From contig CAZKHA010000002.1 in NCBI GenBank assembly GCA_964552325.1, positions 16,758-80,757 on the forward strand: a DNA stretch of 64,000 bases, read 5' to 3'. Within the stretch, counting starts at the first letter, position 1; the number at the start of each line of letters is the position of its first letter. Source of the stretch: an uncultured Bacteroidales bacterium (GTDB lineage: Bacteria; Bacteroidota; Bacteroidia; Bacteroidales; TTA-H9). The translations under genes and the position numbers were made by a program. The notes beneath the pieces were generated by a model. It did no database searches. It was not told the DNA's origin and saw only the letters and a program-made list of their open reading frames with translations. Shown in pieces: positions 12,539-49,091 of the stretch.

Positions 12539-15500
12539 CTACTTAGAATGGGTTTTGAGAGAACTTGTATATTTTCGGTAATAGGTACGCAACTTTATTG
12601 GGTCGGGTTTCAATACCAATCTATTTTCTTTGGAATTAATCTCTCCAACTTTAAAGTTATCTAAATTCATCACCGATTGCTCATCTTTAAACTCGGTTGA
12701 CTTTCGCTGATTATCCATCTCCTGCATACGTTCAGCCTTTTCAGCCTCAAGTAAGCGGGTTTCAATTTCTTGCTGTCGTGCTAGCATTTCTGGAGTAATA
12801 GCTCTATTTATCAAATCATTCTCAATAGCTTCCATTTTCTTTCCAGCGTCTTTTAACAGTTCCTTCAAGCCTTTGTCGCCCGTTTCATTCATTAAGTCTT
12901 GCACAGCCTTCCGAATTTCGTATTGCTCAGCGGCAAGGCGAGCACGAGCTTCACTACCTTCTTTGCCTTCTTTACCCTCTTTAGAACCCGGCTTTTGTTG
13001 CCCCGGTTTTGGTTGCCCCATGCTTTGCTGTTGGCTTCCCTTATTAAGCTTTTGTTGTTGCTTGGTTAAGTTGCTAAGTTTAGCTCCTGACTTTCCTTTT
13101 TTCTTCTTTTTACTCGAACACATTCCACCCGAAGATTGGGGTTGCATCCGCGAGAAGTCCTCAAGATTCTCAGAAAGCATTAAGCTAATTTGATTCATAA
13201 CACCCAACGTACGTTGTTGTTTATCTTCGATATCGGGATAATTTCGGTTCTTAAAGCCTGTGTTTATCATTCCTTTATAAAGCGAAACTTTATCACTAGC
13301 CTCAACATAGGCTACCACATCAACCATTCCAGATTTAAGGAAATTAAGCAAGGAATCACGGAAAACCTCAAATTGGCGGTTAAAAAGGTGCTGATCAGAG
13401 AGAATCTTAGGGTTAAGTTGATTTTGTCGCTTTTGTGCATTAAAGCTAAGGAAATTATCCTCCTGAAAGAAGCTAAGATTGTTAATGTGCTTAATCAATT
13501 TTTTAACCTTTTCAATATTGAGCTCTAGCTCTTGCTCAAAAAGGCTATTCAGCATGTCGTTAAGTTCTTGCTGTGCGTTGTCAATTTTTTGGTCTACATC
13601 CTTCGCCTTTTCTTGCTGTTCGCCATCTTTTGAAGGTTTGTCAAGTGATTTTTGCAAATCCTCAAGGGCTTCATCAGCTTTTTGTACAGCTTCTTCCTTT
13701 AGCTCTTTCTTATTCATTTCATTAAAGGACTGCTCAACTTCCTTTACCAAGTCTTTGGCTTGTTTAAACAACCTATCTTTCTGCTCCGTGTTCAGGTTCT
13801 CGCCCTTTTGTAAAACTTCACTATTCAACTTATCAGCCTTACCCAAACTATCAATCATTGCCTGTAACTTAAGGGCTTGATCGAGCTGCTTGAGCAAATT
13901 CTTCTGCTGTTCCAACGCTAAGTCAGCTAAGTCCATCACCTTCTTTTCTTCTTGCTTGCGTTTTTCATCAAAGAATCCCTGCTTCTCGAGCTTCTCCATC
14001 TTTTCCTTAATCTGATCAAGAATCTTATTCAGGTTCTCTTCCTTCTTTTCAAGTATCTCTCTACTAGTTGAGTCCATCTCTTGAACCTGTTTAAACTGCT
14101 TCGAAATATCCTCTAGTTTATTACCACTTTCATCTAAACTATTCAAAATATCATTTTGAAGTTTTTGTTCCTCTGATATCCTTTCCATCTTCATAAAATC
14201 GCCCGCGAGTGAATCATTGCGCAGTTTTGTTTTTAATGATTTCTGCAATGTATTTAATGATTTGCTTTTGTTGGAGAGCTTTGCCAACTCTTCGCTTAAA
14301 TCATCAAGCTCTTTTAGCATTTGTTTCTTTTGAGGCTTGCTAATAGTAAACATTTGGCTTTTAACTGTATCACGTCTAAACGGATTTGCATCAAACAATA
14401 GCCATAGCGTATAGAGGGTATCGCGTCCTTGATTAAAATAGGAATTAAAATTGAAAGAATAATCAAACTCTTTGCTTTTAACACCATACAGATCAATTAT
14501 ACTCATATTCTTGAATAAAATATTCTTGTACTTATCTAACACAAGATGCTCTATTCGCTTAAGTGAGTTGTCATCATACACATTAACGCGGTACTGCTTA
14601 AAATAAAACAAACTATCATGTGAAATATCCGTAACATAAATACCTGGTCTATCATCGGGTAATGACTTGCTGCTTACAATTATGGTGTCAGCCATTAATT
14701 TATCGATGCTGTAAATCAAAAACTTTAGTGTAAAAGAAACACTGGAAGCCACGTCAAATGTGTAGTTGCCAGGGTCATCACTTATAACTTTTGAACTGAG
14801 GATAGTGGTTGAATCAATAACTGGCTGAATTTTCCCGCAGTACTTAGTAGCCAATGCAAACCTGTATGAAGTGTATGCTGGAGCAATGAAACTATACTTG
14901 TTGACAAAAACATCTGGTTTCATGTTTAAATAAGCCGGATAATTAAGAGTTGTACTAAATCTGGCAACAAGCGGTTTATTATAAACTTTTAACACAAATT
15001 CTTGCCCAATTTCATCAAAATTAACATTTAGTTTAAACCGGATATCGTTGTCAACTTTTTGAAATACATAGCTATAACTACCATCATTGTTAGGTGCAGC
15101 ATGAAAGGAGTTTCCGTTATAAGATACAAACAAATCAGTTGCTTTAAACTCACTTTCTATGTAAACAGTAAGCTTAAAGTCTTCGTATTGATTAACGTCT
15201 AAAGCTACGGGCGAGATAGAATAAGTGCAAATTGCTGGTTTGGCAAATGGGATATTATAATTGACTAAGCGTTCAATTGAATGAGAAAAGCGTTGCTGAT
15301 TCAGAAAATAAACTCCAGTATAAATTAGGATAAAACAAAGCAATAAAACAAACGGAATTTTCAGCTGCCTAAGGTTAATAATATTGCCAAAATCAAATCG
15401 TTCAACAACACCTTCCTTCTGGTTAGCTGCGGCGAGGGCTAAGTGTGAGCTTCCTAAAAACTTAAGCTCCAAATAATTCAAATAAACATCTTTAAGAGAT

Positions 15501-15787
15501 TCCTCTGAGGATAAGCGCTCGCCGAAACGTGAAAGTTTTGTTAAGTTAACTTTACGGCTAATACGCAACAAAAAAACCAGATAATACCCAAGTATCAATA
15601 TATTCACCCCAAGAAAACCAAATAATATAAGCGATTTACTCATAGGGGTCAAATAAAGCTTATCTTCGATATATAAGGCCGTCAGTATATAAAAAATATC
15701 AAAAATGAGCAAGTAAATCGACTTCCTTGCCAGGTTGATCAAGAGTTGCCGATGATAATATTTAAGTAGATACCTTGAAATGTTCAT
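12539..15787 (-). CDS. DUF4175-like membrane protein with long coiled coil
   Basis: N-terminal TMs, Ig-like middle (YPAYL), Q/E/K-rich coiled coils, C-terminal RQQEIETRLLEAEKAER motif; upstream of ybeY-mnmG. Confidence 0.7.
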   Translation of the reverse strand: MNISRYLLKYYHRQLLINLARKSIYLLIFDIFYILTALYIEDKLYLTPMSKSLILFGFLGVNILILGYYLVFLLRISRKVNLTKLSRFGERLSSEESLKDVYLNYLELKFLGSSHLALAAANQKEGVVERFDFGNIINLRQLKIPFVLLLCFILIYTGVYFLNQQRFSHSIERLVNYNIPFAKPAICTYSISPVALDVNQYEDFKLTVYIESEFKATDLFVSYNGNSFHAAPNNDGSYSYVFQKVDNDIRFKLNVNFDEIGQEFVLKVYNKPLVARFSTTLNYPAYLNMKPDVFVNKYSFIAPAYTSYRFALATKYCGKIQPVIDSTTILSSKVISDDPGNYTFDVASSVSFTLKFLIYSIDKLMADTIIVSSKSLPDDRPGIYVTDISHDSLFYFKQYRVNVYDDNSLKRIEHLVLDKYKNILFKNMSIIDLYGVKSKEFDYSFNFNSYFNQGRDTLYTLWLLFDANPFRRDTVKSQMFTISKPQKKQMLKELDDLSEELAKLSNKSKSLNTLQKSLKTKLRNDSLAGDFMKMERISEEQKLQNDILNSLDESGNKLEDISKQFKQVQEMDSTSREILEKKEENLNKILDQIKEKMEKLEKQGFFDEKRKQEEKKVMDLADLALEQQKNLLKQLDQALKLQAMIDSLGKADKLNSEVLQKGENLNTEQKDRLFKQAKDLVKEVEQSFNEMNKKELKEEAVQKADEALEDLQKSLDKPSKDGEQQEKAKDVDQKIDNAQQELNDMLNSLFEQELELNIEKVKKLIKHINNLSFFQEDNFLSFNAQKRQNQLNPKILSDQHLFNRQFEVFRDSLLNFLKSGMVDVVAYVEASDKVSLYKGMINTGFKNRNYPDIEDKQQRTLGVMNQISLMLSENLEDFSRMQPQSSGGMCSSKKKKKGKSGAKLSNLTKQQQKLNKGSQQQSMGQPKPGQQKPGSKEGKEGKEGSEARARLAAEQYEIRKAVQDLMNETGDKGLKELLKDAGKKMEAIENDLINRAITPEMLARQQEIETRLLEAEKAERMQEMDNQRKSTEFKDEQSVMNLDNFKVGEINSKENRLVLKPDPIKLRTYYRKYTSSLKTHSK

Positions 15788-23943: not shown

Positions 23944-24183
23944 ATGAATGTTGAAATTATAACCCCGGAAACTACCATTTTTACCGGTGCTGATATTAGC
24001 CTCGTGCAGCTTCCGGGATTAGATGGATCGTTTGAAATACTCAACAACCACGCTCCCTTGATTGCAGCCTTGCGAAAAGGAAAGGTGAAGCTACTAAATC
24101 AAGACAAAACGACCACGTTTTTTGATATTTCAGGAGGGATGGTTGAGGTTACAAAAAACAAGATTTTAATACTTGCAGAATAA
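23944..24183 (+). CDS. atpC: F1 ATP synthase subunit epsilon (short form, N-terminal domain only)
   Basis: EIITPE, LPG..GSFEILNNHAP, SGG; 79 aa; follows atpD. Confidence 0.92.
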   Translation: MNVEIITPETTIFTGADISLVQLPGLDGSFEILNNHAPLIAALRKGKVKLLNQDKTTTFFDISGGMVEVTKNKILILAE

Positions 24184-24187
24184 TAGA

Positions 24188-24210
24188 GGAGGGGATACCC
24201 TCCTTTTTTT
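24188..24210 (+). terminator. Intrinsic terminator after atpC
   Basis: GGAGGG-GATA-CCCTCC hairpin followed by T7. Confidence 0.85.
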
Positions 24211-24358: not shown

Positions 24359-26371
24359 ATGAAGGAGGAGAAATTCAACATTTTGATTGTTGATGATACA
24401 CCTGAGAACCTTCTTACACTCGAAAGCATTCTCGAAAGCCCAGAGTTGAATATTGTAAAGGCAACTTCTGGTAACGAAGCGCTTGCACTAACATGGGAAC
24501 ATGATTTTTCGTTGGTGCTTATGGATGTTCAAATGCCGGGTATGGATGGATTTGAAACTGCAGAAATCATGCGTTCGCGCGAAAAAACGAAATCAATCCC
24601 CCTCATATTTGTAACTGCCATAAATAAAGAACGCAGCCATATTTTTAGGGGTTATGATACAGGGGCAGTTGATTACTTGTACAAACCTCTTGATTTAGAG
24701 GTTCTTAGAATAAAAATCAAGGCTTTCCTCGAATTTTTTAAAAGCCAAGAAGCCTTAAAACGAACATCACGTCAATTGGAACAAACGGTGGTGGAGCTTG
24801 AGAAAGCCCGATTGGCAGCCGAAGAAGCCACCAAAGCCAAAAGCAACTTTTTGGCCTCTATGAGCCATGAAATTAGAACTCCCATGAATGGCATAATAGG
24901 CATGGCAGAACTGTTGATGTTGGATAAACTAACTCAAAATCAAAAAGATAAAGTACTAGCCATCAAAGAAAGCGGAGAATCGCTGCTCGATATAATTAAC
25001 GATATACTCGACATTTCGAAAATTGAAGCGGAAAAAGTCCAACTTGATCAAATACCCTTTGATATTCAGGATATTTGTTCGAAGATTTCGAAAATGCTTG
25101 CCATAAAAGCTCATCAAAAAGGTCTGGATCTGGTATTTACTATCGACCCAAAGATTCCTGAATTGATTGGTGATCCCATCCGAATCCGGCAAATTCTCAT
25201 CAACTTGATTGGTAACTCAATAAAATTTACACACTCAGGTTATATAGAACTTGCTATTGGCTTTTCCCAAAAACAAGACAGCGTTCTACTCCAGATTGCA
25301 GTTACCGATACCGGCATCGGCATACCTTCGGATAAGATAAATAGCCTATTCGAGCGCTATAACCAAGCAGATGCCTCTATAAGCCGTAAATATGGAGGAA
25401 CGGGATTGGGATTGGCTATTTGTCAAAAGCTTGTACAACTTATGAATGGAAGTATTAAAGTTGAAAGCATTATGGATGCAGGAAGTTGTTTTAGCATTCA
25501 CTTGCCACTAAAAGCTCAAAGCAACAATCCGTCATTGCCAGCGCCCCTATCTTCAACCATTTTTAATTGTACCCTAATTGGACCCGATAACCACTCAAAT
25601 AGAGCAGTGGTTGCTACCTTACAAAATGCCGGTATTAGCTGCCACCAAGTTTCTGATTGCACTTTAAAGAACCTCCAATATATTGATAACACTTGTTATT
25701 TAATTGATGTTGATAAGATTAATAAAGAAGAAATGGCTGAATTGGCGCATTGCCTCCAAAAGAACAATCAAACAGCCAAAACCTATAAAACCATTCTTAT
25801 TGGCAAAAATCCATTAAGCTACCCTGACTTGGATACTAATTGGCAAACCTATCTAGGCTTCCTTTCAAAACCATTTGTATTAAAGGAGTTTATAACCTTA
25901 TATACACAAAACCAAGCGTTCTGCAATACAGATAAGTTGACTTCTACAACAGTAGGCCTAGAAAAGAAAACAAAATGTTTACGTATTTTAGTTGCTGAAG
26001 ACCAAGTTATTAACCGTAGAATAGTTTATGAGTTGCTTACTAAACACGGTTGGGCTGTTGAAACGGCTGAAAATGGACTAATTGCCGTTGAAAAATTCAA
26101 AGACGCGGTATTCGATATCATCTTGATGGATGTGCAAATGCCGATTATGGATGGATATGAGGCTACCAAGTTAATAAGAGAATTGGAAAAAAATACAGGC
26201 AAACACATTCCAATTTTGGCTATGACAGCACATGCAATGGTGGGCGATGCTGAAAAATCGTTAGCGTGTGGCATGGATGATCATATTACAAAACCCTTTA
26301 AACCACTCGAGCTTTACCAGACGATAGAAAACGCAGTAAAACAAAAAATTGATTCGTATGAAACTTATTAG
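24359..26371 (+). CDS. Cytoplasmic hybrid histidine kinase (REC-HisKA-HATPase-degenerate REC-REC)
   Basis: [51 protein letters not shown]-terminal ILVAED/LMDVQMP. Confidence 0.93.
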   Translation: MKEEKFNILIVDDTPENLLTLESILESPELNIVKATSGNEALALTWEHDFSLVLMDVQMPGMDGFETAEIMRSREKTKSIPLIFVTAINKERSHIFRGYDTGAVDYLYKPLDLEVLRIKIKAFLEFFKSQEALKRTSRQLEQTVVELEKARLAAEEATKAKSNFLASMSHEIRTPMNGIIGMAELLMLDKLTQNQKDKVLAIKESGESLLDIINDILDISKIEAEKVQLDQIPFDIQDICSKISKMLAIKAHQKGLDLVFTIDPKIPELIGDPIRIRQILINLIGNSIKFTHSGYIELAIGFSQKQDSVLLQIAVTDTGIGIPSDKINSLFERYNQADASISRKYGGTGLGLAICQKLVQLMNGSIKVESIMDAGSCFSIHLPLKAQSNNPSLPAPLSSTIFNCTLIGPDNHSNRAVVATLQNAGISCHQVSDCTLKNLQYIDNTCYLIDVDKINKEEMAELAHCLQKNNQTAKTYKTILIGKNPLSYPDLDTNWQTYLGFLSKPFVLKEFITLYTQNQAFCNTDKLTSTTVGLEKKTKCLRILVAEDQVINRRIVYELLTKHGWAVETAENGLIAVEKFKDAVFDIILMDVQMPIMDGYEATKLIRELEKNTGKHIPILAMTAHAMVGDAEKSLACGMDDHITKPFKPLELYQTIENAVKQKIDSYETY

Positions 26372-29300
26372 AAACCTGAGAATCAGACATAAACTTTATC
26401 TAATAACAGCAATCTCCGTTGTTAACATCATCTTGGTGGGGTTTACCGCCAATTACTTCTTTAAAACCAGCGATGTAGTAGCCTATATTTTAAAGGGACA
26501 CAGATTACATAATGTAAACTTTCATGCTGGTATTAAAGACTTTTACAAATATCAGCTTACCCGCGATACAAATGACCTGCGAAGCGCCTTAGCACATTTA
26601 GAATACGCTGATAAGCTTTCCTATTTATTTGGTAACGTGAATATTTTACCCTATCAGCAAACACATGCCGAGTTTGAGAAAACCTTGTACAACTCGTTTG
26701 GAGAAGCTTTTGGATACGACTTTAATGCCGCAAAGATTACAGCAAACCGGGTAAAGCTCTTACTAAAGCTCAATAGCCCAAACTTTAACCAAAGCCTTGA
26801 AATAGCTCGCGAGGTTAACAAGCGCGGACGAGACGTGTTGAAATATATGAAACTATATATGGAAACACCTGATGATAAAGATGTTACATTAAAGCTAAAC
26901 GACGCTATAAATTCGGTCATCAGCTATGAAATAACCTTTGCCAATGGCGTTAATGGAATTAACACCTACGTAATGAAGTTGTTGCTGTTGGGCATTGTTG
27001 TAATTGTACTTTTTCTTGGAACATTAACCCTTGTAACGAGTCTTTACATTGCTGGACTTATTTCAAAACCAATACTAACCATTGTTGACAGCTTTAAAAA
27101 CCTGGCCGATGGTGATTTAAGCAACGAAATAGCCATCACCTCAAAAGATGAAATTGGTACCTTATCAAAAGCCATCAATTCAACCTTACAAATACTTAAA
27201 GACATTACCAATCAGGCTAATACTATAGCAACCGGCAATTATGACCTGAAAATAACCCCACGCTCTGAGAAAGATGTACTTGGGATTGCCCTAGGCCATA
27301 TGACCGACCAATTGCGCACTAATGCACTTACCATTAGTCAACAAAACTGGCTTAAGGAAGGATTGGCATCCTTAAATGATATGGTAAGGGGCGATAAAGA
27401 GCTCCAAAAAATTACCAAGGAGATTATCAGTTTTATAACCAAATCAATCAACGGTCATGTTGGAATATTGTATCTTATTGACCATGAGGGATTTTTAAAA
27501 ATGACCTCTACTTATGCGTATCATGATAGAAGGGGCAACTTTAGTAAGATAAAGGTTGGGGAAGGTATAATTGGCCAATGTGCCGCCGAAAAAGAAATCA
27601 TTGAATTTTTAGGGCTAAAGCAAGATGCGCCCATGTACAACAATGGGCTTATAGAAGGCATTCCAACCTACATACTTACGGCTCCCCTTATTTTTGAGGA
27701 CTCGTTAATTGGGGTTATTTTATTAGGTAAGCAAGAAGCTTTTACTTCGATACAGAAGACATTTATTACCACGGCCCTCGAAAATACGGCCATTTCGATA
27801 AACTCGACCCAAACTCGCAGCAAAATCGAGCTACTGCTCAAGCAAACGCAAGAACAAACCGAAAGGCTTCAGGTACAGCAAGAAGAATTAAGGCAAAGCA
27901 ACGAAGAACTTGAGGAGCAAACACGTGCACTTAAAGCCTCGGAAGAGGCCTTACAATCGCAACAAGAAGAACTTCGTGTTACGAATGAAGAACTAGAAGA
28001 ACGTACACGAACCCTTGAAAAAGAACGGGATACGATTACTAAAAAGAATCAGGAGCTTAGGTTAATGCAGGAAGAAGTTGAAAAGAAAGCCAGTGACCTT
28101 GAAGCGGCCAGTAAATATAAATCGGAGTTTCTGGCCAATATGAGCCATGAATTACGAACCCCACTCAATAGTATTCTGGTTTTATCGCAACTATTGGCTG
28201 ATAATAAAAATGGCAACCTGGTTGATAAGCAGATAGAATTCGCCAAAACCATCAATTCATCGGGTGCTGATTTGCTTTCGCTTATAAATGATATACTTGA
28301 CCTATCAAAAATAGAATCAGGTCGCATTGATATTCATCCAGAACGTATTGTACTTACCGAACTCGCCTCATGGACCGAAAAGGCATTTATGCATATTGCC
28401 CAAGAAAAAGGTATTGCCTTCGAAACCCATGTTGATCCAAGCCTTCCTTCTTTCTTTTTATCAGATTATAAGCGCCTAAATCAAATTCTTAAGAACCTAC
28501 TATCAAACGCTATTAAATTTACTGACAAGGGAATGGTGAAGCTTACAATAGCCAAGCCGAAACCTAGCACAACCTTCAAACGCGCCACATTAACCACCAA
28601 CGATGCCATTGCTTTTATTATTTCGGATACTGGTATTGGAATAGCACCTGAAAAACAGCAGGTTATTTTCGAAGCCTTTCAACAAGCTGATGGAACCACC
28701 AGCCGCCGATATGGAGGCACTGGGTTGGGATTAACTATTTCGAAAAGCTTTGCGCAAATTCTTGATGGCGAGATACATTTAGAAAGTAGGGTAGGGGAGG
28801 GGAGCTCGTTTACATTGTATCTTCCTTTGGCGGTTTCAGCATCTGATCTTGCCTTGGCCAACACAACCGTAGAGTCGCAAGAAGAACACAGAGCCGAAGA
28901 AAATGCAACTCAACCTAAAAGTACCCCAGCTATTGTTAGCCAGTTAATTCCTGATGACCGCGATAACCTACACCCTGGCGACCGAATTTTGTTGATTATT
29001 GAAGATGACACAAATTTTGCCTCGGTGCTTTACAACCTAGCCCTTGAAAAAGGCTTTAAATGCATTATGGCCCACGAGGGCGAAACAGGCTTGCACTACG
29101 CTGATTTCTATAAACCTAATGCAATTATACTTGACATAGGCTTACCCGGCATTGATGGGTATGAAGTGCTGCGCCGAATTAAGGAAAACCCTGAAACACG
29201 TCATATTCCGGTTCATTTCATGTCAGCTCACGAAGAATCGAACGATGCCTTGAAAATGGGGGCCATTGGCTTTCTTTCGAAGCCTGTAAGCCTCGAAAAA

Positions 29301-30152
29301 CTAACCACTGCTTTTAAACGGATCGAAGATTTTATCTCGAAAGAAGTACGACGATTATTGATTGTGGAAGATGATGCCAATATGCGTAAAAGCATCAAAG
29401 AACTTATTGGCGATAAAGATGTTAGCACCATTGCTGTGGATAATGGCGACAAGGCATATGAACTCCTTCAGCAAGAACAGTTTGATTGTATCATACTTGA
29501 TCTCGGGCTTAAAGGATCGAGTGGTTACGAGGTGCTTGAAAAAATCAGGAAAAACGAAGCCATCTCTCGCATACCAATAGTTATATACACCGGAAAAGAT
29601 TTGAGCCAAGAAGAAGAGACTATGCTCAAAAAATATGCGGATAGTATTATCATAAAAGGGGCAAAATCACCCGAACGATTATTGGCTGAGACATCAATTT
29701 TCTTGCATAGGGTAGAAGCCAGCTTGCCAAAAGACAAACAAAAACAACTTGATATGCTTCAAGATAAAGAAGATGTATTCAAGAACAAGAAAATTTTGGT
29801 AGTGGATGATGATATGCGAAATGTATTTGCCCTTTCGAGTGTACTCGAAGAAAAGGGTATGAGCATAGTGGTAGGCCGCAATGGACGCGATGGAATTGAA
29901 AAACTGGAGAAAAATACGGATACCAACCTCATTATTATGGATATTATGATGCCAGAAATGGATGGTTATGAGGCTATAAGCCTAATAAGGAAAGCCCCTA
30001 AACTCCAAAAAATCCCCATCATAGCCCTAACGGCAAAAGCCATGAAAGATGACAGGGAAAAGTGTATAGCCGCTGGTGCAAATGATTATCTTACCAAACC
30101 CGTTGACACGGCAAGGCTTCTCTCATTATTAAGGGTCTGGTTATATAAATAA
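26358..30152 (+). CDS. Membrane hybrid histidine kinase (TM-sensor-TM-2xHAMP-GAF-coiled coil-HisKA-HATPase-3xREC)
   Basis: Two TMs, SKDEIG and SEKDVLG HAMPs, [18 protein letters not shown] repeats, [15 protein letters not shown], three receiver domains; ATG at 26358. Confidence 0.93.
27867..28016 (+). repeat. Two 28-aa (84-nt period) coiled-coil repeats LQxQQEELRxxNEELEExTRxL
   Basis: [22 protein letters not shown] at 27867 and [22 protein letters not shown] at 27951. Confidence 0.85.
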
Positions 30153-30159
30153 GAAAACG

Positions 30160-31812
30160 ATGGATACAAATAAACCCAAAATACTTATAGTTGATGATAA
30201 GGAGCAAAACCTTATAACCCTTGAAGCCGTTTTGGGCGACTTTGAGGTAATATTTAACCGTGCCCTATCGGGTAACGAAGCACTTGCGTTAAGCCTTGAG
30301 CATGACTTTGCCCTTGCCATTATCGATATTCAGATGCCCGATATGGACGGATACGAAACTGTGAAGTTGATGCGGCAGGTAAACCGAACGAAAAACCTCC
30401 CAATCATATATGTATCTGCAATTTACAAAGAAGAATTTCATGTTGTAAAGGGTATTGAAGCCGGTGCTGTTGACTTTATTGTGAAACCCATTTTACCAGA
30501 AATACTTAAAGGCAAGGTAAAGGTATTCTTAGAACTGTATAAACACAAGGTAAACCTAGAAGAGTTGGTAAAACAACGCACCAACGAGCTACAACGAAAG
30601 AACGAACAGTTTTTGCAGGAAAAACAAAAAGCAGAAGCAGCAACCAATTCAAAATCAATGTTTTTGGCCAATATGAGCCACGAAATCAGGACCCCTCTAA
30701 ACGGTATAATTGGTATGACCAATTTGCTGAAACGAACTGACTTAAACAATGAACAAACTGAAATGCTTGATATCATTTCCATATCCAGCGATTACCTTCT
30801 TACTGTTATCAACGATATCCTTGACTTCTCGAAGATTGAATCGGGCCAAGTTGATTTAGAAAACATTGCTTTTAACCTTACCGATACCCTTAATGAAACC
30901 ATCACCATTTTTAGACCTAGATTACTTGGTAGCGAAATAAAAATGCAACTCACACAAAGCCAAACCGTGCCTAAATATGTAAAAGGTGATCAGGTGCGTT
31001 TAAAACAAATCCTCAGCAATTTGCTTGGCAATGCTGTTAAGTTTACCGAAAAAGGAAACATAACCATTGAAGTTCGGGTACTTGAAGAAGCTGCCGATTA
31101 CATAAAACTTAAATTTGATGTAAAAGATACCGGAATAGGCATTGATGAAGAAAACCTGTCAAAACTGTTTAAATCGTTTTCGCAAGCCGATGCATCAACA
31201 ACCCGCAAATATGGTGGGACCGGGCTTGGATTGGCAATTAGCAAGAGTTTGACTGAAATGATGGGCGGCAATATTGGCGTTACCAGTAAAAAAGGCAGTG
31301 GTTCTGATTTCTATTTTACGATTGTGTTTAACAAAGTAACTGACGAACAAGAAATACTTAAGCTGTTGAAGCCGCCTAAAAATGAACCTATTGAATCGCA
31401 ACCTAAAAAAATCCTTTTAGCCGAGGATAACCTCATCAATCAAAAAGTGGCTACTTACACCCTCAAAAACCTGGGATGCTCGTTTAAAATAGCCTCAAAT
31501 GGACTTCAGGCTTTAGAACTTTACAAGGCCGAACCATTCGATATCATCTTGATGGATATACAAATGCCTGAAATGGATGGTCTTGAGGCTACGCAAGCCA
31601 TTCGTGAATACGAACAAGAAAAAGGAATTGTACCCGGAGTAACCATTATTGCCTTAACCGCTAATGCAATAAAAGAAGCCATAGATGAGTATTTGTCGAA
31701 GGGCATGAACGGCTTTTTACCAAAGCCCTTTAAACCCGATGAGCTTCAAAACCTAATTAAAAACATTTCAAGTAAACCTAGCAATTATGAGCCAAGAAAA
31801 CCTCAATATTGA
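30160..31812 (+). CDS. Cytoplasmic hybrid histidine kinase (REC-HisKA-HATPase-REC)
   Basis: [50 protein letters not shown]. Confidence 0.93.
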
Positions 31813-32626
31813 ACTAAAGCTTTTATTAGAAGCTCTTTATCTCAAATATGGCTATGATTTTAGGAGTTATTCGCAAGCCCATATTAAGCGGAGATTACTT
31901 CATAGGATGAATCTTGCCAATTGCAGCAGCTTATCAGAGATGCAATATAAGATACTGTATGATCAGGCATTTGCCCAACAGGTTCTGTACGATTTCTCGA
32001 TAAACGTAACCGAAATGTTTCGCGACCCAGACTTTTATAAGGCTGTTAGAGAACAAGTTATACCAATTCTAAAAACATACCCGTTTATTAAGATTTGGCA
32101 TGCAGGCTGTTCTACGGGCGAGGAAGTATATTCAATGGCTATACTGTTGAAAGAAGAAGGCTTGTTTGACCGTTCGCAGATATATGCCACCGATTTTAAC
32201 CAAAAAGTGCTTAAAACGGCAAAAGATGGTATCTATCCAATAGATAAGATCAAAGAGTACACCTATAATTATCAAAAAGCAGGCGGTAAGGAATCTTTCT
32301 CAAACTATTATGATGCTGATTACAACTCCGTTATAATAGATAAAAACCTTAAAAAAAACATTGTATTTGCCGATCATAACCTTGTAACGGATAGTGTGTT
32401 TGCCGAGGTTAACATTGTTTTTTGCCGAAATGTGCTCATTTATTTTACCAAAGACCTTCAAGACAGGGTAATACGCTTATTTCTTGAAAGCCTAATACCT
32501 GGGGGGGTTTTATGCCTTGGTTCGAAGGAAAACATACAATTTTCAGAACATGGGCAACACTTTTCTGTTATTAACAGAAACGAAAAGATATTTAAGAAGG
32601 AATACTCATATAAAAACACCTTGTGA
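31787..32626 (+). CDS. cheR: CheR-family protein-glutamate O-methyltransferase
   Basis: [46 protein letters not shown]. Confidence 0.93.
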
Positions 32627-33198
32627 AGCCTAAAAACCCATATAAAGCTGTTGTTATTGGAGCGTCGGCTGGCGGTCTCGATGCCCTGTCGCGGCTACTG
32701 GGGGCTATCCCTTTGGGCTTTAAGCTTCCAATAATGGTAGTGCAGCATTTGAGCCCACATTCTGATAATTACCTGGCACAACATCTTGATAATCTTTCAA
32801 AATATACGGTTAAAGAGGCCGAAGAAAAAGAGGCCATCAAAAGCCATACGGTTTATATTGCTCCTCCAAACTATCACTTGATGGTTGAAGAGAACTTTAC
32901 GCTTTCGTTAAGCGTTGATGAAAAAGTGAATTATGCCCGTCCTTCGCTTGATGTTCTATTTGAAACAGCGGCATATGCTTATGGCAAAAATTTGATTTGT
33001 ATAGTTTTAACTGGTGCTAACAACGATGGGAGCAAGGGTGCCCTAACAATTAAGAAAAACGGTGGATTGGTTATTATCCAAGATCCAGAAACGGCTTATG
33101 TAAAAACCATGCCTGAATCTGTACTATCGCTTTTAAAACCCGATTACAGTGTTTCTATCGAGTCAATGCCTGAAATTTTGATGGGTTTGGTAAAATAA
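32623..33198 (+). CDS. cheB: CheB methylesterase domain only (no receiver)
   Basis: IGASAGG (Ser), VVQH (His), RPSLDVLF, LTGANNDG (Asp), QDPETA...MP. Confidence 0.92.
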   Translation: MKPKNPYKAVVIGASAGGLDALSRLLGAIPLGFKLPIMVVQHLSPHSDNYLAQHLDNLSKYTVKEAEEKEAIKSHTVYIAPPNYHLMVEENFTLSLSVDEKVNYARPSLDVLFETAAYAYGKNLICIVLTGANNDGSKGALTIKKNGGLVIIQDPETAYVKTMPESVLSLLKPDYSVSIESMPEILMGLVK

Positions 33199-33226
33199 AA
33201 AAAGCCCCCTAACTGGAGGCTATTTT
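33197..33226. terminator. Probable bidirectional terminator between cheB and tRNA-Phe
   Basis: A-run, imperfect AGCC...GGCT stem, T-rich tail. Confidence 0.55.
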
Positions 33227-33237
33227 ATTCTTAGCGG

Positions 33238-33310
<73 letters not shown>

Positions 33311-33326
33311 GTCGTAATTGGAGGTG

Positions 33327-33334
33327 CAAAGATA
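33327..33334 (-). promoter_or_regulatory. -7 element (TATCTTTG) for tRNA-Phe
   Basis: TAnnTTTGCA 16 nt upstream of tRNA 5' end; a divergent TACTTTTG at 33388-33395 serves coaX. Confidence 0.65.
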
Positions 33335-33413
33335 CATCCATTTTTATAATCTCCAAATTTTTTTTCCAGAATTGCGGATTCCACCCGTACTTTTGCAGTC
33401 AAATTTTTGCGCT

Positions 33414-34160
33414 ATGACCACCCTTGTGCTTGATTTAGGTAATACCAATCAAAAGGCTGCCATTTTTAATAATGCTGAATTACAATCAATTATTATACAT
33501 CCTGAATTGAGGCCTGATCTTTTAGACAGCTTTATTGACCAACAAGCAACCGTAAAACCATTTTCATGCTTAATGGCCTCGGTAGTACCTGTAGAGCCAA
33601 GTTTAGTTACTTACTTAACAGCAAATTATAGGTTTGCTCAACTATCTTATGCTATGCCCCTGCCAATAACGCTCAATTACCAAACACCCGAAACATTGGG
33701 TGCCGATCGCATTGCGGCTGCCACGGCCATATCCTATCGGTCGCCCAATCAAACTTCGCTTTCGATTATAGCAGGCTCATGCATAATTTATGATCTTGTT
33801 GATAAAAATAAGGTTTACCAAGGAGGTGCAATATCTCCGGGCCTAGAAATGCGCCTCAAAGCTTTAAATACTTTCAGCAAGAAGTTGCCGTTAGTACCCT
33901 TACAGCCGTTTGATGAGTTAACGGGAGCTACTACCCACCAATCGATTTTATCAGGGGTACTCAATGGAATTGCGTTTGAAATTGACGGTTTTATTGAGCA
34001 TTTGAAGTTAAAATATCCCGATATTAACGTATTTGTTAGTGGTGGAGACCTCAATTATTTTGATAAACGACTAAAAAATAACATCTTTGCAGTCCCAAAT
34101 CTTGTTCTTGAGGGACTTAACAAAATCTTACTATTTAATGAAAACCAACTATCGGTTTAG
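33414..34160 (+). CDS. coaX: Type III pantothenate kinase
   Basis: LVLDLGNT, ASVV, Y.TPETLGADR, GGAISPGL.MR, SGGD, LVLEGL; ATG at 33414. Confidence 0.93.
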   Translation: MTTLVLDLGNTNQKAAIFNNAELQSIIIHPELRPDLLDSFIDQQATVKPFSCLMASVVPVEPSLVTYLTANYRFAQLSYAMPLPITLNYQTPETLGADRIAAATAISYRSPNQTSLSIIAGSCIIYDLVDKNKVYQGGAISPGLEMRLKALNTFSKKLPLVPLQPFDELTGATTHQSILSGVLNGIAFEIDGFIEHLKLKYPDINVFVSGGDLNYFDKRLKNNIFAVPNLVLEGLNKILLFNENQLSV

Positions 34161-35427
34161 TTACGTACTTGCACTGAGTTTTCTGCTGTTTCCTATAGCA
34201 CAAAGTTTCGGTCAAACTAATTATAACTCAGCTTATTCCAACTATGGGCTGGGCGATCTCTCGAACAATACCAACACACGAAATTTCTCGATGGGAGGCA
34301 TTACACAAGGTATGCGTGGCTATTACAACATCAACCACCAAAACCCTGCATCTTACACCGCTTTCGACTCCTTATCGTTTGTTTTTGAGGGCGCTATGTA
34401 TTCAAATTTCACTACTCATAAAACCGAAGCCACGTCAGAGCAAGCCAGTAATGCCGGACTATCGTACTTGACCTTTGGCTTTCCTATAACCCATTGGATG
34501 AGTGCAAGTTTTGGTGTTTTACCCTACAGTATGATAGGTTACAACATTTATAACCTCGAAACCGATCCCTTTTATGGCGAAGTAAATCAAGTTTTTTCTG
34601 GTGATGGCGGTACAACCCAATATTATATTGGGACAGGCTTTAAACTTACCAAAAACCTCTCTCTAGGGGTAAATGCTTGGTATTTAAATGGTAACCTAGA
34701 AAACTCGAGAATTCTAAGCTTTCAAGATTCATCGTATGTTTTTAACACAAGGGTAAAACGCAATATATTTATTGGCGACGTTAACTTTACAGCTGGCCTT
34801 CAGTACACCAAGTATTTTGGCAAAAGCAAAAGGTTTACGGCTGGTTTAACCTATGGGCATGGTAAAAACATGGCAATTACCAACGAAGAACTGGTTGAAA
34901 CGCTTTTTGGTGGCCTTAACAATTCGAATGAATACTATAAAGATACGATCTATTACCAAGCACCTACTGATGGAAACCTTTACCTACCAATGGTTTTAGG
35001 TGGGGGCTTTGTTCTTGAGAAAGCGGAAAGATGGCTTGTTGGTGCGGATATTGAATATGGTTTTTGGCAAGATTATAAGCTAAATGATGTTTCGGATAGT
35101 TTGCGCAATTCGCTAAAAATTAAAGTTGGGGGAGAACTGATACCAAGCTCCTCTAGTATTTCCAAATACTGGCAAAAAGTTAGGTATCGTGCTGGTTTCC
35201 ATTATTCTAAGTCTTACCTTAAATTAAAAAACACTGGGGTTGATGAATTTGGCCTGAGTTTTGGTCTTGGGTTGCCAATAAAACGCTTAGCAACCACGGT
35301 TAACCTTGGAATGGAAATAGGCAAAAGGGGCACTGTGGAGAACAACCTTATACAAGATAACTTTATACAGTTTAGGTTGGGTATATCCATAACCGAACGA
35401 TGGTTTGTTAAACGAAAATATAACTAA
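34138..35427 (+). CDS. Outer-membrane beta-barrel protein (FadL/OmpP1-like)
   Basis: Signal peptide; NSAYSNYGLG, SMGG, NPAS, LPYS..GY; C-terminal ERWF. Confidence 0.75.
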   Translation: MKTNYRFSYVLALSFLLFPIAQSFGQTNYNSAYSNYGLGDLSNNTNTRNFSMGGITQGMRGYYNINHQNPASYTAFDSLSFVFEGAMYSNFTTHKTEATSEQASNAGLSYLTFGFPITHWMSASFGVLPYSMIGYNIYNLETDPFYGEVNQVFSGDGGTTQYYIGTGFKLTKNLSLGVNAWYLNGNLENSRILSFQDSSYVFNTRVKRNIFIGDVNFTAGLQYTKYFGKSKRFTAGLTYGHGKNMAITNEELVETLFGGLNNSNEYYKDTIYYQAPTDGNLYLPMVLGGGFVLEKAERWLVGADIEYGFWQDYKLNDVSDSLRNSLKIKVGGELIPSSSSISKYWQKVRYRAGFHYSKSYLKLKNTGVDEFGLSFGLGLPIKRLATTVNLGMEIGKRGTVENNLIQDNFIQFRLGISITERWFVKRKYN

Positions 35428-41205: not shown

Positions 41206-43149
41206 GTGATCCGACAAGAAACCATAGCCAAAATACTTGATGCCGCACGCGTTGAAGAAGTTGTGGGTGAATTTGTTTCCCTTAAAAAGAAGGGAGGCAA
41301 TTACACGGGCCTATGTCCTTTCCATAACGAAAAAACGCCCTCGTTTTATGTTTCGCCCGTAAAAGGCATTTACAAATGCTTTGGTTGCAGTGCTTCGGGT
41401 ACTGCGGTGCGCTTTTTAATGGATCATGAGCATTATACCTATCCTGAAGCGCTTAGGTACCTTGCTAAAAAATACAATATTGAAGTTGAGGAACATGAGC
41501 AAACCGCCGAGGATATAAAGGCAGCGGGCGAACGCGAGAGCCTTTACAGCGTAACGGCATTGGCTGCAAGCTTTTTTACCGAAACCCTATGGAACACCGA
41601 GCCAGGCCGCTCTATTGCCTTATCATACTTTGAAGAACGCGATTTTTCGCATGCCACTATTACCAAATTTGGATTGGGCTTTGCCCCCGATAGCCGTGAT
41701 GCACTGTTTAAATTTGCTGCCACAAAAGGATATAAACCCGAATACCTCGAAAAAGCCGGTTTGGTTTTAGATAAAGATGGTACATATATTGACCGCTTCA
41801 GAAACCGTGTAATTTTCCCCATACACAACCTCTCGGGCAGGGTAATTGGATTTGGTGGCAGGATACTCACCCGCGAAAAAAACCTCGCCAAATACATCAA
41901 TTCGCCCGAATCCGAGATCTACCACAAAACCAATGTGCTTTATGGAATATCATTTGCCAAAAAAGACATTGCCAGCCTCGACAATTGCTACTTGGTAGAA
42001 GGCTATACCGATGTGATATCAATGCATCAGGCTGGAATTACCAATGTGGTAGCCTCCTCGGGAACCTCGCTTACTACCGAACAGATTCGACTTATAAAAC
42101 GCTATACCTCAAATATTACCATTTTATATGATGGAGATTTGGCAGGTATAAAAGCTTCTTTTAGAGGCATTGATATGGTTTTGCAGGAAGCTTTAAACGT
42201 GCGAATCGTATTGTTTCCGGATGGAGAAGACCCAGATTCGTTTTCGCGAAAAAAACGCCCCGAAGAAGTTAAGGAATACATTACAACCCAAGCTAATGAT
42301 TTCATCGTATTTAAAACCAACCTCTTACTAAAAGAAGCAGAGGGAGACCCAATTAAACGGGCTGGACTAATCAAAGAAATTATTTCTTCTATTGCCCTGA
42401 TTCCAGATGGTATTATCCGTGAGGCTTATGTGCGGGAGTGCTCATCGTTGATGGATATGCGCGAGCAAACTTTAATTTTTGAACTCAACAAACTGCTGCG
42501 CAAGGGCCAAAAAAAAGAAGATGCCCCAGCCGAGCCAATAGCTTCTGAAAATCAACCTATTGAAATTCCTGCTCAGAAGGATAACGATCGGCTGAACCTA
42601 AAGACCCAAGAACTAAACATCATACGAATTTTGATTAGCTATGGCGACCAAGATTTTTCATTTCCTGTTATAAAACCCAAAGGCATTATTGAAGAAGTAC
42701 CTGTTAAAACCGGACTATTTATTGTAAATGAACTAATTGAAGATGAATACACCTTCGAAAATCCCATTTACCATAAAATCTTTAGCGAGTACAAGGAAGC
42801 ATTTAAAAATGAGTTGGTTCCTGGTGAGCAGTTCTTTATAAACCATTCAGATACCGAAATTTCTGACTTTACCATTTCCTTAATAGCTACACCCTTTCAG
42901 TTAAGCCCCAATTGGTTCGATCGGAAAGGAATTCATACCCCCACCGAACTCGAAAAACTCAAAGACTTGGTAATTAACTCGGTATATTCGCTAAAACTGC
43001 GAAAAATCGAAATAATGATTGCTGAAATACAGGAAGAAATAAAAACAGCCGACGAGATAGATGTAATGCTATTATTGAAAAAACAGTTTGATTTACAAAC
43101 ACTAAGAAGTGCCGTTTCGAAACAGCTTGGAAGGATTATCCTTAATTGA
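41206..43149 (+). CDS. dnaG: DNA primase
   Basis: CPFHNEKTPSF...CFGC zinc finger, FRNRVIFPI, KYINSPE, VEGYTD, YDGD, DPD. Confidence 0.97.
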   Translation: MIRQETIAKILDAARVEEVVGEFVSLKKKGGNYTGLCPFHNEKTPSFYVSPVKGIYKCFGCSASGTAVRFLMDHEHYTYPEALRYLAKKYNIEVEEHEQTAEDIKAAGERESLYSVTALAASFFTETLWNTEPGRSIALSYFEERDFSHATITKFGLGFAPDSRDALFKFAATKGYKPEYLEKAGLVLDKDGTYIDRFRNRVIFPIHNLSGRVIGFGGRILTREKNLAKYINSPESEIYHKTNVLYGISFAKKDIASLDNCYLVEGYTDVISMHQAGITNVVASSGTSLTTEQIRLIKRYTSNITILYDGDLAGIKASFRGIDMVLQEALNVRIVLFPDGEDPDSFSRKKRPEEVKEYITTQANDFIVFKTNLLLKEAEGDPIKRAGLIKEIISSIALIPDGIIREAYVRECSSLMDMREQTLIFELNKLLRKGQKKEDAPAEPIASENQPIEIPAQKDNDRLNLKTQELNIIRILISYGDQDFSFPVIKPKGIIEEVPVKTGLFIVNELIEDEYTFENPIYHKIFSEYKEAFKNELVPGEQFFINHSDTEISDFTISLIATPFQLSPNWFDRKGIHTPTELEKLKDLVINSVYSLKLRKIEIMIAEIQEEIKTADEIDVMLLLKKQFDLQTLRSAVSKQLGRIILN

Positions 43150-46100: not shown

Positions 46101-46798
46101 CAAGCGGCATAAACATTGCCTAAGTACGGGCTGGTTGTACTGTTATCAACCCATAAATGATTCTTATCAAGTAGGTTAGGATATCCTGTAACACTTGCCA
46201 GAACCACATCATCCCAGGTTTGGCCACCATTAACCGAACGAGCCACCGACTGGCCATAAAAAGCATTTATTTTGCCAATGTACATGGTACTGTTTAACGA
46301 AATAGCAGCAGCAGGATCACCTGCATTATCCTCGCCAGCACCATATAGTTGGCCTTCCCACGATTGCCCAGCGTCCTCTGAAAGTTGGTAATTAGCACCA
46401 AACATCATTTGGGCAGGATAATCGGAACTATTGTTTGAATTGAGAATGCTATCATTATCGTTGGGATTGACAAACACCGAGTTTTCACTTTGAGTTGTTA
46501 AGCCTTCTTCAATTAAAACATCGGGCGAATCCTGAATACTACCCTGACGCATAATAAGTTGGCTTCCTTTAAAAATCGGTGGTTTATAACCTTTATCATC
46601 GGCCACTTTAATCAACCCATTCTTGGCTTGCTGCCTCCAATAAAACATATTATCAACCCGATTATCATAGTAAGGTGATGGATTGGCCAGTAGGTTCAAT
46701 TGCCGGTCAATTCCTTTCTTTTGAGCATTAGAATATGGGCATGCTGCAAAAAACAGTATAAACCAAAGGCATACGCTAAAAGCATTCGAACTTCTCAT
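43142..46798 (-). CDS. T9SS cargo: BNR/Asp-box beta-propeller plus Ig-like and adhesin-like domains and CTD
   Basis: Six SxxxGxxW/F boxes (SEDAGQSW, SVNGGQTW, SINNGISW, SFDGGQTF, SSNNGASW, SYDGGQAW); C-terminal FPNPA...G.YFVRI...K. Confidence 0.75.
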   Translation of the reverse strand: MRSSNAFSVCLWFILFFAACPYSNAQKKGIDRQLNLLANPSPYYDNRVDNMFYWRQQAKNGLIKVADDKGYKPPIFKGSQLIMRQGSIQDSPDVLIEEGLTTQSENSVFVNPNDNDSILNSNNSSDYPAQMMFGANYQLSEDAGQSWEGQLYGAGEDNAGDPAAAISLNSTMYIGKINAFYGQSVARSVNGGQTWDDVVLASVTGYPNLLDKNHLWVDNSTTSPYLGNVYAAWTRFGGNNNGLIQLARSINNGISWSSPMNVSLGVNALAHSQGVNIQTGPNGELYLVWAIYDTWPGDENALGFARSFDGGQTFEPAYRIINNINGLRNSLTSKNMRVSGFPVMAVDQSNGPNRGTIYVVWNNLGFPGVNTGPDIDLYLIKSSNNGASWSDPIKINQDAPGLGKEHFMPWITCDPVTGTLSVIFFDDRNTGPEDCEVWVANSYDGGQAWDDFRVSDFAFTPSPIPGLGGGYMGDYLGITAYDRKVYPVWSDNRSGNTLAYTSPFETGPPPNQPYVIYQNLEITPADPSNEPELIFGDSVHFTITMKNIGDEPAQNVVVTLLSTSPYVTITDSIENYGSFNIGQSIAKEEAYTLKVSDTIPDGINVRFDLKATDGDSTWYSHFRIVSKAPQLAILTYAINDEEGNANKILDPGEQAILKLWVQNTGDFPLESVLCSLTTSTPELQVLQSSSIIPQLVSNQIDTAYFSVKLAPTAPYGINIMFHFEAQSGLFFAQKDFFSRVGLIVEDWETGSFQKYPWMRSGNKLFSIASNLPYEGHFCAASGDIDDEEESVLYLSYQIASDDSVSFWYKTSTESNYDQLQFYVDNIRYGKWSGIRDWKRVAYMVPAGNHTLRWQYSKDPYFSAGEDKVWVDYISLPIFNLPQVEAGTDRGICANQDSVHIEAVGSNYASITWTTMGDGVFSQPQALITDYFPGLQDITNGKVRLKLKAITNMATTEDSLMVFIQSPPTQPTNLLATPSSYCLGAVSAIQLAADSVSGDSIIWYLGACNGSIAGTAYHNNVLAPTSSQTYYAQISNACGDSPCDSIRVTVFQLPSIHLGTDTSICTLQTLILDAGADFSSYQWSTGSASRFLEIDSIVVPVGSSAIFSVKVVDGNACETSDSIKVSMTHCPGWGLNDPLRANLLGLFPNPASTYLGIKFNLPVNADSELEIMDANGKIVYAQKLVSTINQLRIDLSAFAKGAYFVRIKGSTVLQKFLVN

Positions 46799-46833
46799 GA
46801 CAAACAGGGGTTGATATTCAGGCATAAAAGTAT

Positions 46834-46859
46834 AAAAAAAGCCGGGCATACACCCGGCT
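46834..46859 (-). terminator. Intrinsic terminator after deiminase gene
   Basis: Minus strand AGCCGGG...CCCGGCT followed by T-run. Confidence 0.8.
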
Positions 46860-48929: not shown

Positions 48930-48971
48930 AAATACATCGGTTTGTTTGAATTTGGTGCAAAAAAATTTATG

Positions 48972-48979
48972 CAAAAGTA
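48972..48979 (-). promoter_or_regulatory. -7 element (TACTTTTG) for the PPAD-like gene
   Basis: TAnnTTTGCA on minus strand; a divergent TACCTTTG lies at 49055-49062. Confidence 0.55.
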
Positions 48980-49091
48980 GCAAAGTTTGCATCTATTAAT
49001 AATATCATTCCTAAGCCCAAGCCTTTGCTATTGATCAAAAACTCAATAAGTAGCTACCTTTGGAACTTGAATGTATGATAAACCAATACCT

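Follow-up and report, generated by a model that had tools for sequence, protein, structure and literature searches.

The methyl-accepting coiled-coil (MAC) classes of signalling protein were reportedly catalogued by Wuichet and Zhulin in 2010, and profile hidden Markov models (HMMs) for them are said to be held in MiST 3.0. In two accounts, the MAC2 class is described as one in which the kinase doubles as the receptor, CheR and CheB are separate enzymes, and a methyl-accepting chemotaxis protein (MCP), CheA and CheW are absent (bioRxiv 10.1101/2022.05.07.491037; PMC6943060). The preprint also states that MAC proteins were uncharacterised experimentally as of 2022, and that some proteome clusters have MAC components and seemingly no other chemotaxis system (bioRxiv 10.1101/2022.05.07.491037). 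Here, we describe a locus that fits these descriptions in a 64,000-nucleotide stretch of contig CAZKHA010000002.1 from an uncultured Bacteroidales bacterium (the whole stretch that was analysed, referred to below as the window). The locus consists of three histidine kinases (HK1, HK2 and HK3) that carry receiver (REC) domains, followed by cheR and cheB, in that 5' to 3' order and all on the plus strand. Comparison with related loci indicates, with high confidence, that a kinase of the HK2 type, CheR, CheB and a REC-HK partner kinase form a conserved module. It is moderately probable that HK2 is the substrate of CheR and CheB in a MAC2-type signalling operon. The five genes are the following.

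24359..26371, plus strand: HK1, soluble partner kinase of 670 amino acids (aa), REC-HisKA-HATPase_c-(degenerate REC)-REC (Pfam Response_reg twice, HisKA, HATPase_c).
26349..30152, plus strand: HK2, candidate methyl-accepting kinase, transmembrane segment (TM)-sensor-TM-HAMP-GAF-coiled coil-HisKA-HATPase_c-REC-REC-REC (Pfam, hydropathy).
30160..31812, plus strand: HK3, soluble partner kinase of 550 aa, REC-HisKA-HATPase_c-REC (Pfam Response_reg twice, HisKA, HATPase_c).
31787..32626, plus strand: CheR-type S-adenosylmethionine (SAM)-dependent protein-glutamate methyltransferase, 279 aa (Pfam CheR_N and CheR, 152 and 40.8 bits).
32623..33198, plus strand: CheB methylesterase catalytic domain alone, 191 aa, no receiver (Pfam CheB_methylest, 190.5 bits).

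A five-gene cluster of this domain make-up had been proposed in a sequence-only reading of the same DNA, and open reading frames (ORFs) were found on the plus strand at exactly the positions given there, with Pfam domains that agree. The junctions between successive genes are, from 5' to 3', -23, +7, -26 and -4 nt. The same reading had noted the lack of an MCP, CheA, CheW, HPt (histidine phosphotransfer) or DNA-binding protein, which is borne out by Pfam: the five proteins gave no match at E <= 0.01 to an MCPsignal, CheW, CheA-type, Hpt or DNA-binding domain, and the 39 other ORFs scanned in the window gave none to an MCPsignal, CheW, CheA-type or Hpt domain. The cluster in the window likewise has no output domain.

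The likeness to MAC2 extends to each element of the published description. Receptor and HisKA/HATPase_c kinase are in one polypeptide, with a coiled coil whose heptads stay in register as far as the phospho-accepting His600; separate cheR and cheB genes accompany the kinase, here in one operon of overlapping genes; and MCP, CheA and CheW are missing, both from the ORFs scanned in the window and from the 82 neighbours scanned in the 32 related loci described below. Membership is judged from the class descriptions, and nothing tested contradicts it. The earlier assignment of the locus as MAC2-like needs correction in its details and not in its fit to those descriptions. It had placed the system on three hybrid kinases; the conserved acidic coiled-coil module is present in HK2 alone, which leaves HK2 as the single methyl-accepting candidate and HK1 and HK3 as partner kinases. 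It had also called the system receptor-less; hydropathy and an AlphaFold2 (AF2) model give HK2 a periplasmic helical-bundle sensor of its own, and the system is better described as MCP-less. Its remark that no experimental characterisation of the class was known agrees with the 2022 preprint, and full-text searches, which are thin on subscription journals, gave nothing later. The observations of a two-unit rule, of a REC-HK partner and of a sensor specific to the lineage, set out below, were made here, and the 2010 paper may already report them.

The evidence that carries the reading of HK2 as a substrate comes from the segment between its GAF domain and its H-box. The parts of HK2 are as follows.

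26454..26993, plus strand: periplasmic sensor domain, residues 36-215, an all-helical bundle (AF2).
27048..27800, plus strand: HAMP (residues 234-283) and GAF (residues 351-484) (Pfam).
27861..28028, plus strand: acidic coiled-coil module, residues 505-560, two 28-residue units between GAF and H-box.
27885..27968, plus strand: additional 28-residue unit, such as residues 513-540 (the choice of indel frame within the repeat is arbitrary), absent from one-unit relatives without cheR.
28119..28832, plus strand: catalytic core, HisKA (residues 591-658, His600) and HATPase_c (residues 706-828) (Pfam; H-box invariant).
28974..30149, plus strand: three receivers, residues ~876-1000, 1000-1125 and 1146-1267 (Pfam; receiver alignment).

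Each unit of the module comprises four acidic heptads of the pattern QQEELRxxNEELEE..., with Leu at position d, a polar residue (N, T, E or Q) at a and Glu-Glu at b/c, and the module as a whole has a net charge of -8. HK1 and HK3 have short linkers, of net basic charge (+3 and +4), in which Glu-Glu-Leu heptads are lacking. When HK2 is aligned with 31 homologues, which share 31-81% identity with it over the full length, residues E512, E513, L514, N518, E520, L521, E523, Q524, E540, E541, L542, N546, E547, E548, L549 and E551 are invariant in 32/32 sequences. The coiled coil is as invariant as the catalytic boxes, the solvent-facing b, c, e and f positions included, and the invariance of these surface positions would fit a recognition surface rather than a mere spacer. 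When the coiled-coil segment was used as a query, matches at E <= 1e-3 were obtained for 7220 of 7999 scored candidates. The 120 matches listed combine GAF with a histidine-kinase core (HisKA and/or HATPase_c), almost always with HAMP and mostly with receivers; dCache or CHASE3 is present in some of them, and CheR or CheB domains in none.

The relationship between this segment and cheR was assessed in related loci (numbered L001 onwards), which are the best 80 of at least 615 kinase-alignment matches among GTDB species representatives and come from many phyla. An HMM of the 57-residue two-unit segment, built from 120 homologues, was run on all ORFs of the loci, and a match of at least 30 bits was taken as strong. 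There were 32 strong loci, of which 28 could be evaluated; the other four are cut within 1.5 kb downstream and were left out (L001, L002, L010 and L060). Of the 48 loci that scored below this level, 43 were kept; the other five (L011, L055, L069, L073 and L078, of which L055 and L078 do carry cheR) were set aside because they are shorter than 12 kb. cheR is present in 23/28 of the evaluable strong loci versus 5/43 of the others (Fisher p = 2e-9). In 22 of these 23 loci its start lies 22-415 nt beyond the kinase, on the same strand; in the remaining one, L006, it belongs to a CheB-CheR kinase fusion. In 18/23, cheB directly follows cheR. None of the 82 same-strand neighbour ORFs scanned (of 189 listed) in the 32 strong loci has an MCPsignal, CheW, CheA or Hpt domain.

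The association is sharper when the units themselves are counted. With seven truncated or short loci set aside, two E[LM]xxxNxx[LM] units were found in the 103 residues upstream of the H-box in 23/30 cheR-positive kinases versus 1/43 cheR-negative kinases, the latter in L019 (Fisher p = 7e-12). The median number of acidic [ED]E[LMIV] triplets is 4 in the cheR-positive and 1 in the cheR-negative kinases (Mann-Whitney p = 5e-10). In the alignment, the one-unit kinases of L003, L021, L058, L041, L015 and L053 differ from the two-unit kinases by a gap of exactly 28 columns, and the other differences in length are single heptads.

A receiver-fused kinase (REC-HK, REC-PAS-HK, REC-HK-REC or REC-HWE_HK) adjoins the module in 19/23 CheR-linked loci, upstream in Bacteroidota-type loci and elsewhere downstream of cheB or cheR; it also adjoins 3/5 of the CheR-less strong loci. 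Both kinds of position have counterparts to the kinases studied here. HK1 is collinear with the kinases upstream of the MAC kinase in the Bacteroidales loci L007 (50% identity over 666 aa) and L002 (48% over 669 aa), and HK3 with the REC-HK-REC proteins downstream of cheB or cheR in L056 (41% over 553 aa), L066 (38% over 539) and L005 (39% over 546). Judged from these alignments, HK1 and HK3 belong to one conserved REC-HK partner family, with both positional variants present in the window.

The two adaptation enzymes appear to be intact. The best solved relative of the CheR is Bacillus subtilis CheR (5ftw, E 5e-35); it was also aligned to 1bc5, and its SAM-site stretches CSTGEE and CRNVxIYF align with 5ftw. 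It is 43-58% identical to the CheRs that adjoin related kinases, which occupy the same position in distant phyla, and Pfam finds no TPR domain in it. A basic N-terminal stretch has a role in canonical CheR; the corresponding stretch here is KRR, of which R35 and R36 are invariant in 20/20 sequences, and by comparison it would suit an acidic helical substrate. A complex prediction with two copies of HK2 residues 498-600 and CheR, run without controls, gave scores of 0.00, 0.34 and 0.00 against a mark of 0.32 and speaks neither for nor against binding. The CheB aligns to the catalytic domains 3sft and 1chd with the motifs GASxGG (Ser14), QH (His42) and NDG (Asp135), which we take to be the catalytic-triad columns. 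The absence of a receiver from CheB, already remarked on in the sequence-only reading, was confirmed and holds across the class: in 14 of the 18 CheB-bearing, CheR-linked strong loci (ORFs called) the CheB is 189-248 aa long and is therefore too short to include one. A receiver-less CheB is also reported for the working chemotaxis system of Campylobacter jejuni (PMC2147049).

Searching with the CheR for longer proteins gave 1306 relatives at E <= 1e-3, of which the best 120 are listed. Among these the commonest architecture is a CheR-CheB fusion of ~500-590 aa, with up to 61% identity to this CheR. Fusions with complete domains include CheR-REC-HisKA-HATPase (proteins P0182 and P0202), REC x3-CheR (P0130) and CheR-REC-GGDEF-EAL (P0160).

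Gene order, domain composition, intact catalytic and receiver motifs, conservation and the cross-phylum association of two units with cheR are observed. We infer that HK2 is methylated, what this does to the kinase and which way phosphotransfer runs. In the scheme that we favour, HK2 would be receptor and kinase in one, with the signal passing from the periplasmic helical sensor through HAMP and GAF and along a long parallel coiled coil to His600. CheR would methylate exposed Glu pairs of the coiled coil and the receiver-less CheB would demethylate them; the accompanying neutralisation of charge would alter the packing of the helix pair, which is marginally stable and has a polar core, and reset the output of the kinase. 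This would amount to chemoreceptor-style adaptation built directly into a two-component kinase. HK2 would hand phosphoryl groups on to HK1 and HK3, at their N-terminal receivers, and this second kinase tier would relay them to an output encoded elsewhere. Since receivers are absent from both CheR and CheB, feedback would be conformation-selective, through enzymes that prefer one conformational state of their substrate, by analogy with chemoreceptor adaptation. A more specific proposal, which we hold tentatively and place just short of probable, is that duplication of four heptads (28 residues) grafted adaptation onto a HAMP-GAF hybrid kinase. The duplicated unit would then be methyl-accepting, CheR and the receiver-less CheB would provide a memory without CheA, CheW or arrays, and the REC-HK kinases would serve as a second-tier readout.

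Several observations weigh against methylation of HK2. The window covers 64 kb of the genome, and an MCP-CheA system may lie elsewhere. HK1, HK2 and HK3 contain no match to the regular expressions [ASTG][ASTG]xx[EQ][EQ]xx[ASTG][ASTG] or EExxA[ST], which we take to be the classical MCP methylation-site consensus; HK2 offers just E-E-x-x-x-[ST]-like heptads, as read by eye. No methylation data on any member of the class were found in the full-text literature, with subscription journals mostly outside its coverage. The association statistics treat loci as independent and ignore phylogeny. Five of the 28 strong loci have no cheR nearby (L008, L014, L017, L019 and L046), with L008 and L017 having two degenerate units, and 7/30 cheR-positive loci do not have two units. 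In the cheR-linked Firmicutes loci L043 and L062, runs of QSEELQT heptads replace the 28-residue units and are closer in style to the heptads of the MAC1-type protein of L006, which resemble the HK2 coiled coil at the motif level only, the HMM similarity being non-significant (12.9 bits, with high bias). The unit QQEELxxxNxEL occurs once in 31 related kinases, mostly of actinomycetes, that have no cheR within ~10 kb; the motif alone is therefore not enough to indicate methylation and may serve signalling mechanics. Finally, P0158 (36 bits) and P0235 are HAMP-GAF-coiled coil-kinase-REC-CheR fusions that bear the coiled-coil motif, and they are weak evidence because REC and CheR are truncated at the junction; they may be deletions or assembly artefacts.

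The alternative that survives best, although we regard it as unlikely, is that the coiled coil is purely a signalling helix between GAF and the dimerization and histidine phosphotransfer (DHp) domain, and that CheR and CheB have a different target, be it a partner kinase, a receiver or some unlinked protein, or bind non-catalytically. In favour of this, 31 kinases without cheR have the motif in a one-unit version, CheR is fused to REC-HK partner-type proteins in P0182 and P0202, and a REC-HK protein accompanies the kinase in most of both the CheR-linked and the CheR-less strong loci. The linkers of HK1 and HK3, however, offer no Glu pairs, and the feature that co-varies with cheR is the extra 28-residue unit. 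The invariant surface positions of the coiled coil and the intact catalytic motifs of CheR and CheB also argue against a mere helix beside non-catalytic enzymes.

It is distinctly improbable, and less likely than a pure signalling helix, that CheR and CheB carry out the ordinary adaptation of canonical chemoreceptors encoded elsewhere in the genome, with their adjacency to the kinases reflecting co-regulation only. The 64 kb of coverage and the lack of the classical methylation consensus in the kinases would be in keeping with such an arrangement. Against it, the kinase-cheR adjacency recurs across many phyla and tracks the presence of two units, fusions to partner-type kinases and receivers occur in this lineage of CheR, and the 82 neighbours scanned yielded no MCP or CheW. 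The taxonomy of the window also speaks against it: Bacteroidales are generally non-flagellated, the IleRS encoded here is closest to that of uncultured Bacteroidales, with ~70% identity to proteins labelled MAG Bacteroidales, Lentimicrobium or Sphingobacteriia, and the window (GC ~0.35-0.43) has C-terminal sorting domains of the type IX secretion system (T9SS) and Bacteroidota-typical DUFs. A multi-kinase phosphorelay whose cheR and cheB are leftovers, in decay, of chemotaxis machinery that was lost is very improbable, since a CheB without a receiver and a window without MCP, CheA or CheW are set against genes that are full-length, overlap their neighbours, keep their catalytic motifs and encode a CheR conserved with its same-position counterparts in distant phyla, and against a receiver-less CheB that is the rule in the class and present in C. 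jejuni.

With HK2 as the favoured substrate, the locus can be compared with other described systems. A MAC1-type arrangement is seen in Nostoc, where the protein L006:14052-18275(-), CheB-CheR-...-PAS-HK-REC, adjoins a two-unit kinase and has the heptads NEEILSS NEELQST NEELETA KEEIQAT NEELNTI after CheR and before PAS-HK-REC. Common to both is a coiled coil of Glu-Glu-Leu heptads beside CheR/CheB and upstream of a HisKA/HATPase_c kinase with a receiver. They differ in that HK1, HK2 and HK3 contain no CheR or CheB domain, these being separate genes here, and in that the NEELQST-type heptads of L006 sit between CheR and PAS, whereas the 28-residue unit of HK2 occurs twice between GAF and DHp. 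The canonical MCP-CheW-CheA system shares the CheR and CheB enzymes, a candidate substrate in the form of an acidic, helical coiled coil whose Glu pairs recur at heptad spacing and, presumably, the logic of reversible methylation that resets kinase activity. In contrast to that system, the cluster has no MCPsignal (PF00015), CheW, CheA or classical methylation consensus, its CheB has no receiver, and HK2 is a HisKA-type dimeric kinase within the same polypeptide as its receptor. The canonical MCP is a four-helix hairpin bundle, whereas the substrate in HK2 is presumably a two-stranded parallel coiled coil, given its position between GAF and DHp. ACF-type clusters have cheR with multidomain REC-HK, REC-GGDEF and REC-phosphatase proteins and keep MCP, CheW and CheA (PMC3447774). 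The presence of cheR beside REC-HK proteins and a second-tier REC-HK kinase is shared with ACF clusters; the retained MCP, CheW and CheA are not, and the CheR studied here has no TPR domain.

In NCBIfam, the kinase cores score highest against models of hybrid-kinase phosphorelays of the BarA, TorS, ArcB and RcsC type and of HrmK. Every match is far below its curated cut-off (for example BarA, 371.8 versus 890; HrmK, 359.7 versus 725), and, unlike in such phosphorelays, there is no HPt domain in the cluster, nor in the ORFs scanned in the window or the 82 neighbours scanned in related loci. The HrmK profile spans HK2 residues 453-987, that is the coiled coil, the kinase core and the first receiver, at half its cut-off. 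According to search listings, HrmK is a hybrid kinase linked to hormogonium development in Nostoc, and it may share the one- or two-unit coiled coil.

HK2 is 1267 aa long from TTG 26349 or 1264 aa from ATG 26358. Because its near-identical homologues are 1264 aa long and align with an offset of three residues, ATG 26358 is probably the start, which would give a 14-nt overlap with HK1. Hydrophobic segments at residues 14-38 and ~207-236 of HK2, with none in HK1 or HK3 by hydropathy, flank the sensor domain. The AF2 model of this domain has a mean pLDDT of 93.9 and is helical throughout. It has no fold match in the PDB at E <= 0.001 (best E 0.18) and no Pfam family, and an Atlas search gave weak leads alone (CHASE3, 4HB and TarH at 0.90). 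In 1.84 billion proteins, 34 representatives were found at E <= 1e-3, nearly all of them orthologous kinases or fragments of these. Because there is no PDB match, no Pfam family and only these 34 relatives, the sensor and its input appear to be restricted to this kinase lineage.

The count of seven intact receivers in the three kinases was upheld by alignment, in which the acidic pair, the phospho-acceptor Asp, the Thr/Ser and the Lys are kept in all seven; an eighth, degenerate receiver lies in HK1 at residues ~400-535. The third receiver of HK2 (window 29784-30149) is much better kept than the other two, with 57-89% identity to homologues, and its AF2 model has the canonical receiver fold (pLDDT 92.7). 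In four Flavobacteriia/Chitinophagia loci, listed here, a 121-aa receiver with 43-49% identity has a gene of its own, which lies between those of the kinase and CheR.

L030:7144-7512: stand-alone third-receiver gene.
L049:15123-15488: stand-alone third-receiver gene.
L050:14814-15179: stand-alone third-receiver gene.
L063:14811-15176: stand-alone third-receiver gene.

Kinases in which the third receiver is fused end in the near-invariant sequence LLRVWLY. This was considered as a docking tail for CheR or CheB, by analogy with the C-terminal pentapeptide of MCPs, but is not supported, as the AF2 model places it within helix alpha-5 of a canonical receiver. Its W-x-Y spacing is also unlike the W-x-x-F of the MCP pentapeptide.

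Neighbours with possible output functions were seen in some related loci. A REC-SpoIIE (PP2C) protein adjoins the cheR-linked kinase in the Paenibacillus loci L020 (L020:7862-9091) and L056 (L056:8023-9204), the latter of which also has a STAS protein (L056:15644-15982), and in the cheR-less actinobacterial locus L046 a REC-GAF-SpoIIE-HATPase_c_2 protein (L046:12838-14952) follows the two-unit-type kinase. These neighbours suggest a partner-switching or sigma-factor output in those lineages.

The limits of the cluster in the window are set by the following features.

23944-24183: atpC (Pfam ATP-synt_DE_N), preceded by atpD.
24185..24206, plus strand: terminator-like hairpin and T-run 3' of atpC, the upstream boundary.
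33203..33221, no strand assigned: hairpin that separates the cheB stop from the convergent tRNA-Phe gene, the downstream boundary.
33236-33310: tRNA-Phe gene, convergent with cheB.

Some 150 nt (approximately) of non-coding DNA lie 5' of HK1. The cluster had been described as lying between terminators, which is correct for the upstream side, with its hairpin and T-run after atpC. The downstream hairpin scores on the minus strand, where its position would terminate tRNA-Phe; on the plus strand, ATTTTATTC comes after it, and it is possibly a bidirectional terminator. Terminator-like sites in the region are no commoner than in shuffled sequence (12 versus 9.4 +/- 3.1), and an Rfam scan of the window gave two tRNAs and nothing else.

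Other genes of the window are recorded for completeness. The type III pantothenate kinase ORF at 33318-34160 (+) has its listed TTG start 8 nt from the end of tRNA-Phe; its Pan_kinase match begins at residue 36, and the true start is probably further downstream. The gene at 46881-48992 (-) encodes a 703-aa protein with PAD_porph (Porphyromonas-type peptidyl-arginine deiminase) and Ig-like domains and a weak match to the T9SS C-terminal sorting domain (23.4 bits versus a 27-bit cut-off), and the protein may be secreted; the product of the adjoining gene at 43142-46849 is a BNR/Ig protein of 1235 aa that has a T9SS tail. Another large sensor kinase, of 1227 aa, is encoded at 6079-9762 (-), with HAMP-HisKA-HATPase_c in its last 300 residues and ~930 N-terminal residues without a Pfam match; it has no match to the coiled-coil HMM and is therefore not of the MAC type. 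No Pfam family was found, at the thresholds used, for the ORFs at 12539-15787 (-), 34087-35427 (+) and 58295-60340 (+), of 1082, 446 and 681 aa, respectively.

This locus extends an already catalogued class by a variant that has two partner kinases and a sensor confined to its lineage. The association of two 28-residue units with cheR, and of one unit with its absence, gives a precise and cheap hypothesis, with four Glu pairs to mutate and one unit to delete. Cultured relatives that have the module would be better test beds, namely Flavobacterium (L063), Chryseobacterium (L049), Sphingobacterium (L066), Paenibacillus (L056) and Nostoc (L006). If HK2 is indeed the substrate of CheR and CheB, reversible glutamate methylation would extend beyond chemoreceptor arrays, as a portable adaptation module that two-component kinases can acquire. 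Should the duplication of the 28-residue unit prove to be the origin of this property, it would mean time-derivative sensing for a non-motility output in non-flagellated bacteria.

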